Below, in pieces: positions 7,597 to 9,301 of a DNA stretch of 41,775 nt. A model generated the notes under the pieces. The model did not search any database. It had not been told where the DNA came from and saw nothing but the letters and a program-made list of their open reading frames with translations. Made by a program: the position numbers and the translations under genes. Each line of letters starts with the position of its first letter. Positions within the stretch are counted from its first letter, which is position 1. Source of the DNA: a virus (Duplodnaviria; Heunggongvirae; Uroviricota; Caudoviricetes); the IMG/VR virus record IMGVR_UViG_2675903658_000008, positions 1-41,775 of that record. One strand, given 5' to 3'.

Positions 7597-7660
7597 GGGT
7601 AACTCCTTATATTTGATTGCATAACGAAAACGCCTCTCGTGAAGCGTTATTGGTATGCAT

Positions 7661-7686
7661 ATAAAAAAGCCCTCACACTGGAGGGC
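7661..7686 (-). terminator. Rho-independent terminator upstream of cIII-like gene
   Basis: GCCCTC-CAGTGT-GAGGGC hairpin followed by TTTTTTAT on the minus strand. Confidence 0.55.
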
Positions 7687-7820
7687 AAAGAAGATTTCCA
7701 ATAATCAGAACAAGTCGGCTCCTGTTTAGTTACGAGCGACATTGCTCCGTGTATTCACTCGTTGGAATGAATACACAGTGCAGTGTTTATTCTGTTGTTA
7801 GTGCCAAAAATAAAGGCCGG

Positions 7821-8444
7821 CTATGCGGCCTCGGAAGGAAGTCCAATCATCTTATTCAAATCTTCTACCCGTAAAGCAGGAAGTGCTGTACTTGCTTTAT
7901 CTGCTTCTTTTGGTAGCAATTCTTTGCTTTCAGGCCAAACTTCAATAAGTCGCTTAACTGTTGTTACTGAGTTCAAAGCAGCCCATACATTTGATTCGAT
8001 ATCCTTTTTCAAGGCTTCAAGGTTTTGTTGCAATGCGCAGATTTCATCAAACCTTTTTGTTATTTCGTGTTCTGCGTCAAACATGCATTTATCTTTGGTT
8101 GGAGTAGGGAGCAATATATCTTCGCCGTTGCCGTCTTTCCCATATGAATGCCATCCAACCCTTCTGCCAGATACAGTCAGATAAATTGAAGTAGAAAGAA
8201 CATCGTATGAGTAAAATGAACATCCCATCTTTTCAAGTTCTTCACTTATAGCTACCAACTTGGATGATAACTGATCCACTTCCTCAGTTTTCTTTTTACC
8301 GCCAAACGCAATAACTCTGGCGTCAAGTGCAAGCTGGTTCTTTAACTTTGTTACTTCTTCAAGTTCAGTGAAAACCCCAGACTTAATTAAAGCGTTACGA
8401 GCGATTTCCTCTTTCATTCTCGTAGTTAAGCGGATTGATGACAT
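7821..8444 (-). CDS. Hypothetical protein (207 aa), pL-operon accessory gene
   Basis: AT-rich ORF; start at MSSIRL with GAGAGGAA RBS; no recognisable motif. Confidence 0.6.
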   Translation of the reverse strand: MSSIRLTTRMKEEIARNALIKSGVFTELEEVTKLKNQLALDARVIAFGGKKKTEEVDQLSSKLVAISEELEKMGCSFYSYDVLSTSIYLTVSGRRVGWHSYGKDGNGEDILLPTPTKDKCMFDAEHEITKRFDEICALQQNLEALKKDIESNVWAALNSVTTVKRLIEVWPESKELLPKEADKASTALPALRVEDLNKMIGLPSEAA

Positions 8445-8455
8445 ATTAATTCCTC

Positions 8456-8566
8456 TCAAATAAGTGGTTTGCTGCCTAATTTCATTTTCTGGCGACCAAC
8501 ACAAGTCACACCCATTTCACTGCGTGGCTTGCGGTAGTAAAGATTGTGCCTGTCTTTTAACCACAT
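8456..8566 (-). pseudogene. Remnant of a lambda-type N antiterminator (C-terminal fragment)
   Basis: Open frame encodes ...YYRKPRSEMGVTCVGRQKMKLGSKPLI, resembling recalled lambda N C-terminus; no credible RBS or N-terminal ARM. Confidence 0.4.
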
Positions 8567-8627
8567 CAGGCTCGGTGGTTCTCGTGTACCCCTACAGCGA
8601 GAAAAATAGTAAAATCCTCTCACCCCC

Positions 8628-8990
8628 TTATTTTGTCATGGGGATATCTCCTTCAGTTCTGACCATTCGCCTTAATACTTTCCTTAAGTCGATGTAAAGT
8701 TGAAGGTCTCCATTTGCTTCGGCATCAGCCATTTTTTGCCTGACAAGCAGTAATGTTTCATACGGCTCAATAAGAATATCGTCATGAGTAATTAGGTGAA
8801 GCGTTGCCGCATCAACTATTCCTAGAGCTGCGCCAAGTATCAAAAATTCCCTGCTATTTTTGTCGCATGAGGAGATAAGCGTATTTAGCGCATACCTAAT
8901 ATTCTTTATAGCTGTTGTTAATGCTGCAATTTCTTCGATGGTGTCTTCTTCAATGAGCTTTTTAAGCTCATATTTTTCTTCCTGACCCAT
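8628..8990 (-). CDS. Hypothetical protein (120 aa), immediately downstream of N
   Basis: ATG at 8990 two nt after N stop with GAGG RBS; AT-rich; no recognisable motif. Confidence 0.55.
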   Translation of the reverse strand: MGQEEKYELKKLIEEDTIEEIAALTTAIKNIRYALNTLISSCDKNSREFLILGAALGIVDAATLHLITHDDILIEPYETLLLVRQKMADAEANGDLQLYIDLRKVLRRMVRTEGDIPMTK

Positions 8991-8992
8991 AA

Positions 8993-9301
8993 TTACCTCG
9001 CCGTCAATTGTTTTGATTTCCGGTAGCCTGCTGCGTAAATGGCTACGTTTGGCAGGCAAATACTTCCACTGCATTCGTCGGTATTTTGGTTACGAATGTT
9101 GCCGAGTGATATTGCTTTTTCAGAAAGGCTTAAACGCTTTCTCGTGCCTTTCTGAACAGGTTCCTCACTGTCTGTGCCGAAGATAGAATCAATGATGTTA
9201 CAGATAGCATCACGCTCGATGGCCAGCTTTCTGCGCCGCTCATGACGGCGAGTTTTGGCATTTCCTGCAAATGTTGATTTTCCGTACACGATTACCGTCA
9301 T
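8993..9301 (-). CDS. N-type antitermination protein, P22 gene 24-like
   Basis: Arg-rich motif AKTRRHERRRKLAIER near N-terminus; overall resemblance to recalled P22 gp24; GAGGA RBS; downstream of pL/nutL. Confidence 0.8.
   Translation of the reverse strand: MTVIVYGKSTFAGNAKTRRHERRRKLAIERDAICNIIDSIFGTDSEEPVQKGTRKRLSLSEKAISLGNIRNQNTDECSGSICLPNVAIYAAGYRKSKQLTAR

Follow-up and report, generated by a model that had tools for sequence, protein, structure and literature searches.

The minus strand of the prophage analysed here carries, at positions 8456 to 8541 of the window (the whole 41,775-nucleotide stretch of DNA under study), a segment that very probably represents a non-functional recombination scar, comprising the final 27 codons of an N antiterminator gene of the phage-21 type (YYRKPRSEMGVTCVGRQKMKLGSKPLI) and their TGA stop codon. 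This scar still supplies the ribosome-binding site (RBS) of the Nmad5-family gene that follows it. It is a case of ordinary phage mosaicism, the exchange of N C-terminal modules being already published (PMC8022706), and provides a base-level example of such an exchange. Furthermore, it accounts for an unannotated gap of 170 bp in 93 complete Escherichia coli genomes and in many Stx-phage records, while the reference phages lambda and P22 are found to carry a phage-21-type N vestige between sieB and orf28/ral.

Identity and extent of the N-derived segment

Translation of the minus strand from position 8566 to 8456 yields MWLKDRHNLYYRKPRSEMGVTCVGRQKMKLGSKPLI followed by a stop codon, exactly as quoted in a first-pass annotation of this DNA, which read the segment as the vestige of a second N gene, of lambda type, and as a recombination scar. 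When compared against the lambda N protein by BLASTP (a single comparison), the last 27 residues aligned with 16/27 identities (59%; e-value: 3e-8), while residues 25-54 of the open reading frame (ORF) matched profile positions 141-170 of the 176 in PHROG 271 (‘anti-termination protein N-like’; e-value: 4.4e-11), so that the alignment to the N family is significant by both routes. At the DNA level, positions 8536-8455 share 98.8% and 97.6% identity with the annotated N 3′ ends of Sf101 and mEp043, respectively (82 bp; e-value: about 1e-37), and positions 8541-8455 share 98.9% identity with the N gene of 611R6. The translated tail (YY...PLI) is identical at 25/27 residues to phi21 N and at 27/27 residues to the N proteins of both 611R6 and Stx2_EH0505; the phage 21 N sequence used as the query matches the annotated N of Escherichia phage 21 at 100% identity. 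On these identities the remnant allele is of the phage-21 type (93-100% to the phi21, Sf101, 611R6 and EH0505 tails) rather than of the lambda type (59%). The lambda N protein has a homologous C-terminal region of the same type but is more distantly related as an allele, and a lambda-like N is thus not the source of the remnant. The first-pass annotation was therefore right in its homology to the lambda N C-terminus, but not in its choice of allele. The C-terminal part of lambda N is the RNA-polymerase-binding region, and the C-terminal region of the remnant is, judging from the alignments, homologous to the RNA-polymerase-contacting end of the lambda/21 N proteins.

In a column-by-column comparison the N homology starts abruptly at about 8541-8536 (‘YYRKP’), and upstream of about 8541 there is no similarity to any of the N alleles compared. 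This places the mosaic junction at 8541-8536 and divides the span originally assigned to the remnant (8456-8566), of which 8456-8541 is derived from N and 8542-8566 is not. The remnant shares with the N genes of phage 21, Sf101, mEp043, 611R6 and Stx2_EH0505 the last 27 residues, 98-99% DNA identity and the joint between the stop codon and the following RBS, but, in comparison to phage 21 N, lacks the Arg-rich, boxB-binding motif of the N family, the central region and a usable start codon with its RBS. As the first-pass annotation had noted, the remnant frame contains no Arg-rich motif and is not preceded by a usable RBS. A complete N gene has its own start codon and RBS, is about 90-110 codons long and is the first gene after nutL, whereas an intact N gene and an hkaQ-like gene lie between nutL and the remnant frame, placing the remnant about 450 bp downstream of the intact N.

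The probability that the N resemblance is merely a chance similarity in a short, basic peptide is negligible. Although only 27-30 residues are involved and neither Pfam nor NCBIfam yields a match, chance is ruled out by the 82-87 bp that are 98-99% identical to annotated N genes (e-value: about 1e-37) and by the PHROG 271 match, and the tail furthermore ends at the same stop/RBS joint as the intact genes. The sharp junction, together with the nearly identical stretch present within the intact N genes of other phages, identifies the segment as a gene remnant, and the proposal of a second N vestige within a recombination scar is upheld.

Structure of the locus and origin of the scar

The window harbors a lambdoid prophage that is 99.9-100% identical over the N region to a prophage in E. 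coli FHI_NMBU_03, with the leftward early operon on the minus strand. A lambda-like cI gene (11264-10551) is first in order, followed by pL and its operators (about 9560-9500), which are 91% identical to those of lambda, and by an intact N gene (8993-9301, minus strand). The latter encodes a P22-type Arg-rich N-terminus joined, from about 9075, to a B-type C-terminus (CSGSICLPNVAIYAAGYRKSKQLTAR), and its product contains the Pfam N_peptide domain (PF25694; e-value: 4.6e-40), covers profile positions 53-157 of PHROG 271, and is identical at 63/70 residues to EH0505 N over residues 1-70 and at 68/100 residues to P22 gp24. On the minus strand at 9075-9099 this N carries a patch (...GNIRNQNTDE) unlike that of EH0505, HK630 and PK8217, all of which have ...GS(L/I)RCKKAEE; this patch is a further small mosaic piece at the C-terminal module boundary of N.

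The hkaQ-like gene (8628-8990, minus strand) begins 3 nt past the N stop codon, in the slot that is held by nun in mEp235. It shares 95% DNA identity with hkaQ of HK630, and its 120 aa product belongs to PHROG 7374 (function unknown; e-value: 7.5e-78) and has no match in Pfam or NCBIfam. Homologues in some genomes are named ‘antitermination N domain protein’ by PGAP, and a literature search on hkaQ yielded nothing useful. Downstream of the remnant, the Nmad5-family gene (7821-8444, minus strand, with its ATG at 8444) encodes a 207 aa protein (PF18757; e-value: 2e-70), and between the 120 aa and 207 aa genes the RefSeq record is without any annotation. This Nmad5 gene is the native downstream neighbor of the phage-21-type N tail, which it follows as part of an intact N in Stx2_EH0505 and as a remnant in mEp235 and locus L104.

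The stretch can be understood by comparison to Stx2_EH0505, an undisrupted relative to which the window is collinear on either flank of a 551-bp block. In this phage an intact N gene (MTVIVYGKSTFAGNAKTRRHERRRK...SLGSLRCKKSKSEEVERKQNRIYYRKPRSEMGVTCVGRQKMKLGSKPLI), with a P22-type N-terminus and an A-type tail, is followed directly by the Nmad5 gene. The window matches Stx2_EH0505 at 9497-9093 (95%) and at 8541-8338 (98.5%), and between the two matches lie 551 bp in the window (about 9092-8542) versus 47 bp in EH0505. The first ~70 codons of the window N are collinear with the Stx2_EH0505 N, the end of which corresponds to the remnant tail, and only about eight codons (VERKQNRI) of the intact EH0505 N are missing. 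The 551 bp in turn match HK630, across the 3′ part of N (CSGSICLPNVAIYAAGYRKSKQLTAR, then the stop codon) and hkaQ (95%) and across a conserved non-coding block, here termed X (98.8%). Where the first-pass annotation envisaged the P22-type N and the 120 aa gene as one inserted unit, the foreign block thus consists of the alternative N C-terminus, hkaQ and X, and is 551 bp in size. The ‘lambda-type pL operon’ into which it placed this insertion is likewise lambda-type in the immunity region only, as the downstream operon (Nmad5, a Rad52-like gene, ssb and an abc2-like gene) is not of the lambda type.

The gp24 proteins of P22 and L share 96% identity across their first 75 residues, carry unrelated C-terminal stretches of 25-35 residues and are functionally interchangeable (PMC8022706). 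The window N and EH0505 N are, by sequence, a comparable pair with alternative C-terminal modules. The published P22/L case differs in that it concerns intact genes, and a displaced tail persisting downstream as a fragment is not mentioned there (PMC8022706).

Lambdoid N genes are modular, with an N-terminal RNA-binding part joined to one of two unrelated C-terminal modules, namely the A-type of lambda and 21 (...YY(S/R)KPRSEMGVTCVGRQK(I/M)KLGSKPLI) or the B-type of P22 and HK620 (...LPNVAIYAAGYRKSKQLTAR). From these comparisons we infer the following order of events. Illegitimate recombination in an ancestral phage would have fused a block with X at its end to an internal site of an A-type N, with the working upstream N keeping, or bringing along, a B-type C-terminus and its own stop codon, so that the A-type tail would have been stranded downstream. 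The X-plus-tail unit would then have spread through homologous recombination on either side, and is now decaying, through the loss of 60 bp between 9-bp repeats in lambda and P22 and of the entire tail in HK630.

The stop codon of the N tail and the Shine-Dalgarno sequence of the Nmad5 gene together occupy 8452-8458 (minus strand). As the first-pass annotation had observed, the two overlap, with TGA at 8458-8456 and GAGAGG at 8457-8452, the latter being located 7 nt before the Nmad5 ATG. The same joint is found after the intact N of Stx2_EH0505, and in 93/127 IMG/VR loci among the matches listed the downstream sequences diverge only after the shared GAGAGG. Since the A-type tail stop overlaps the Shine-Dalgarno sequence of the next gene there is no intergenic room, and a viable crossover therefore had to fall inside N, leaving a piece behind. 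This overlap is the simplest reason for N fragments being so common; it would account for swaps at this site leaving fragments and reveals no new mechanism.

Lambdoid phages classically show gene fragments and sharp breaks in homology where modules meet. The X|N-tail junction resembles other lambdoid mosaic joints in its abrupt homology boundaries, the short repeats at deletion endpoints, the optional opposite-strand genes (sieB and hkaP) and the combination of one conserved unit with many different neighbors. The modular evolution of lambdoid phages is reportedly treated by Susskind and Botstein in 1978 and in the HK97/HK022 and HK620 genome papers. In a literature search covering mainly the more recent phage literature, no description was found of this N-tail remnant or of the lambda/P22 vestige.

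Block X, and the distribution and decay of the remnant

Block X (8542-8626) is conserved and non-coding, is not derived from N, and forms the upstream side of the scar. Positions 8604-8524 are 98.8% identical to lambda (NC_001416, 34453-34373), between orf28 and the start of the opposite-strand sieB (34482), and 97.5% identical to P22 (L002, 1508-1588), between sieB and ral. Positions 8626-8547 are 98.8% identical to HK630 (L003, 1498-1577), immediately upstream of the opposite-strand hkaP. In all three phages X thus adjoins the 5′ end of sieB or hkaP, which lie on the opposite strand. Overall it retains 97.5-99% identity across lambda, P22, HK630 and the window prophage, and lies 20-50 bp upstream of the sieB/hkaP start wherever such a gene is present; the window contains neither gene, leaving X orphaned beside hkaQ. 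In HK630 and Stx1a_10051 hkaP is located between hkaQ and X on the opposite strand, flanked by the imperfect repeats GGGGGTGAAGAGG and AGGGGTAAGAGG. The window harbors a single copy of this repeat, GGGGGTGAGAGG (8616-8627, minus strand), which marks the joint and identifies the window as the hkaP-less version.

Two interpretations of X were rejected. As a diverged piece of N it showed no more than two to three chance identities in tblastn searches against the N alleles and in direct alignment, and because X is without similarity to any N allele, neither 8542-8566 nor the first half of the 55-codon ORF that spans X and the tail is derived from N. As a structured RNA or terminator it yielded no Rfam match, fold z-scores of -0.6 and -0.7 and no terminator-like site. 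Promoter consensus scans of the window, P22 and lambda likewise found nothing at X. By eye, a candidate -10 sequence can be observed at the edge of X (TAAAAT, plus strand, 8610-8615; the P22 and lambda counterpart is TAAACT), and its -35 is poor. Transcription from this site, were it active, would run antisense into hkaQ and N. The sieB promoter was reportedly mapped by Ranade and Poteete in 1993. Two copies of a motif, CTGTAGGGGT, spaced by about 30 bp, closely precede sieB and hkaP in lambda, P22 and HK630 (lambda 34480-34471; HK630 L003 1494-1503 and 1521-1530), and the window keeps one full and one partial copy (8588-8597 and 8621-8629). This motif may represent a regulatory repeat of the sieB/hkaP accessory genes.

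The 172-bp unit of X and tail (at least 80% coverage) is present in 93 of 5426 complete E. coli genomes and is never annotated, while parts of it are found in 1939 genomes of the same set. The whole ORF is carried by 39 phage records, and the exact 35-nt junction by 29 IMG/VR contigs. Upstream, the junction is adjoined by hkaQ alone, by hkaQ and hkaP, or by a P22-type sieB, and downstream by Nmad5, a 157 aa gene or ral, in at least six neighbor combinations. E. coli E9 shares 9121 to 7700 with the window and has a different N 5′ end, while E. coli PK8217 shares 9495-8524 and then runs into ral. The exact junction is absent from the GTDB species-representative genomes, an absence that marks it as strain-level prophage content and nothing more. 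The X|N-tail junction is thus old and shared, with the window being a reassortment of pre-existing pieces. The first-pass annotation regarded the scar as the mark of a splice within this operon; the scar is real, but a junction shared with several different neighbors was not made in this prophage.

A series of deletions is evident among the relatives. In lambda, P22 and PK8217, X is followed by 18 bp of the tail (to 8524) and then by a 60-bp deletion between two direct repeats, the first copy being GCAAGCCAC (8524-8532, minus strand) and the second, a match at 8/9 positions located 60 bp downstream, GCAAACCAC (8464-8472, minus strand). Lambda and P22 retain one hybrid copy of the repeat, GCAATCCAC, ahead of the stop/RBS region and orf28. 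The continuation in lambda, P22 and PK8217 reads ‘...GCAATCCAC TATTT(A/G)AGGTGA..ATATGGAAGAAG’ and leads into orf28. The 3′ end of the intact N gene of Sf101, ‘...GCAAACCACTTATTTGAGGTGAGATATGGAAGAAG’, and the identical orf28 behind it align to this continuation. All three therefore carry the same remnant, shortened by a deletion of 60 bp. Lambda itself therefore contains, between sieB and orf28, a shortened copy of the phage-21-type remnant (34453-34373 and the following ~10 bp). The full vestiges, located between sieB and orf28/ral, extend over 34453-34357 in lambda (NC_001416; L138) and 1508-1610 in P22 (L002). In HK630, X is cut at 8547 and the tail is wholly absent. Partial or complete loss is thus observed in lambda, P22 and PK8217 (60 bp), in HK630 (all) and in a class with a B-type N (54 bp kept), and the fact that well-studied phages are viable with the remnant reduced or missing argues for its dispensability, except for the terminal RBS.

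IMG/VR was scanned with a 38-nt tail core, and the 120 contigs listed, which include many near-identical E. coli prophages, were considered. This core was found in at least about 51 intact N genes. As a remnant, the last 54 bp lie directly on the stop codon of a B-type N in at least 41 copies, while the tail is found behind a nun-like gene and terminator, as in mEp235, in at least about 10 copies, behind a zinc-finger-like gene and terminator in at least seven to eight, behind X in at least four including the window, and in another setting in at least one. In the 54-bp class a P22/HK620-type N (...YRKSKQLTAR) stops at a TGA that is out of frame inside the old 21-type tail, as in L109, L124, L129, L134 and L114 and in the E. 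coli O157/O111 matches H126-H133; this class represents a similar scar, shorter and of independent origin. In mEp235 (L135, 1201-2607) the order is N, nun-like gene, terminator, N-tail remnant and Nmad5, while in Stx1_112808 (L011, about 1300-1625) the remnant is in the nun frame, with a single stop codon between. HK022, unlike these two nun-carrying phages, has no N remnant after nun. A literature search for the coordinates of lambda tL1 gave nothing useful. Among the matches listed, the tail begins 80-95 bp from the stop codon, in a zone of ~15 bp, in four of about five independent-looking junction families, and this zone coincides with the module boundary in intact N genes. Such clustering is not predicted by a purely random scar model.

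Coding potential and function of the tail

An ORF of 55 codons (8456-8623, minus strand) with a GTG start at 8623 is obtained mechanically across X and the N tail, and is judged not to be a gene. The GTG is located 4 nt past the hkaQ stop codon and directly against a G-run, which leaves no spacing for a Shine-Dalgarno sequence, while none of the internal ATG codons is preceded by one. This frame is not the one in which hkaQ is read, and in lambda, P22 and HK630 it is interrupted or missing. The 55 aa product has no match in Pfam or NCBIfam, the C-terminal part of N being represented, among the databases scanned, in PHROGs only. The exact 55 aa sequence is absent from a collection of 15 billion proteins, in which a 36 aa version occurs once, as ‘hypothetical’. 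The possibility, raised in the first-pass annotation, that the frame forms part of a longer expressed gene finds no counterpart in the sequence, since it does not extend beyond about 59 codons and is unannotated in RefSeq (PGAP). For annotation purposes, the 55-codon ORF should not be called a gene.

The persistence of the tail could also be read as the result of selection. It is unlikely that the A-type tail is a selected cis-acting element, serving as a recombination ‘linker’ or as a leader for the next gene (Nmad5, ral or the 157 aa gene). The remnant form does occupy more than half of the tail-core IMG/VR loci among the matches listed, the tail is found behind at least four to five upstream sequences (a B-type N directly, X, nun and terminator, the zinc-finger-like gene and terminator, and that of L120), its junctions cluster 80-95 bp from the stop codon, and the 93/127 loci listed above diverge only after the GAGAGG RBS. 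These counts are, however, inflated by many near-identical E. coli prophages, the N tail and RBS show no unusual RNA fold (z = -0.07) or Rfam match, and lambda and P22 are fully functional without 60 bp of the tail and HK630 without all of it, while the largest remnant class retains 54 bp. Given that these phages and the 54-bp class are without parts or all of the tail, no single stretch beyond the RBS is indispensable.

Translation of the 55-codon ORF, or of its 36-codon ATG version, for example through re-initiation after the hkaQ stop codon, would release a free N C-terminal peptide that could modulate antitermination. The frame is open from the GTG 4 nt after that stop codon and intact in 93 E. 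coli genomes, and the corresponding part of lambda N binds RNA polymerase, but the peptide is very improbable when weighed against the lack of usable Shine-Dalgarno spacing, a first half made up of non-coding X that occurs without the tail in lambda, P22 and HK630, other remnant classes with different or no upstream frames, the missing PGAP annotation and the absence of the exact 55 aa sequence from the protein collection. Furthermore, all differences among the copies consist of deletion or truncation of the frame. Such a peptide would end in ...GRQKMKLGSKPLI. In its broadest form, the idea that the tail is a selected element, whether as a translated frame or RNA leader for the first gene past N or as a free RNA-polymerase-binding peptide tuning antitermination, is quite unlikely; if true, it would explain the persistence of the tail behind at least four to five unrelated upstream sequences, with junctions mostly 80-95 bp from the stop codon. 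Under the preferred reading, that of a non-functional scar, we infer that only the last few bases of the tail, forming the RBS, still matter.

Among ~22 remnant copies no frameshift or nonsense mutation was observed. The ratio of synonymous to non-synonymous changes is 4:2 in 22 remnants versus 17:4 in 51 intact genes, with too few changes to be informative and with copies ascertained through an exact 38-nt match. The remnant is almost undiverged from the intact alleles, which counts against the scar reading, as neutral decay is thus seen only in the form of deletions, not of point mutations.

The Nmad5 protein, a nucleotide-modification-associated domain protein, is encoded by the first gene past the N region of the early-left operon of the window. 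In Dhillonvirus phages a point mutation in nmad5 enables escape from the Tmn defence system (PMC11846954). Past this gene, the minus strand harbors three terminator-like hairpins with T-runs (7813-7832, 7669-7686 and 7629-7648). Positions 7818-7700 are 97.5% identical to the region downstream of ral in lambda, with 100% identical stretches in several other phages, and on this similarity look like another shared boundary block.
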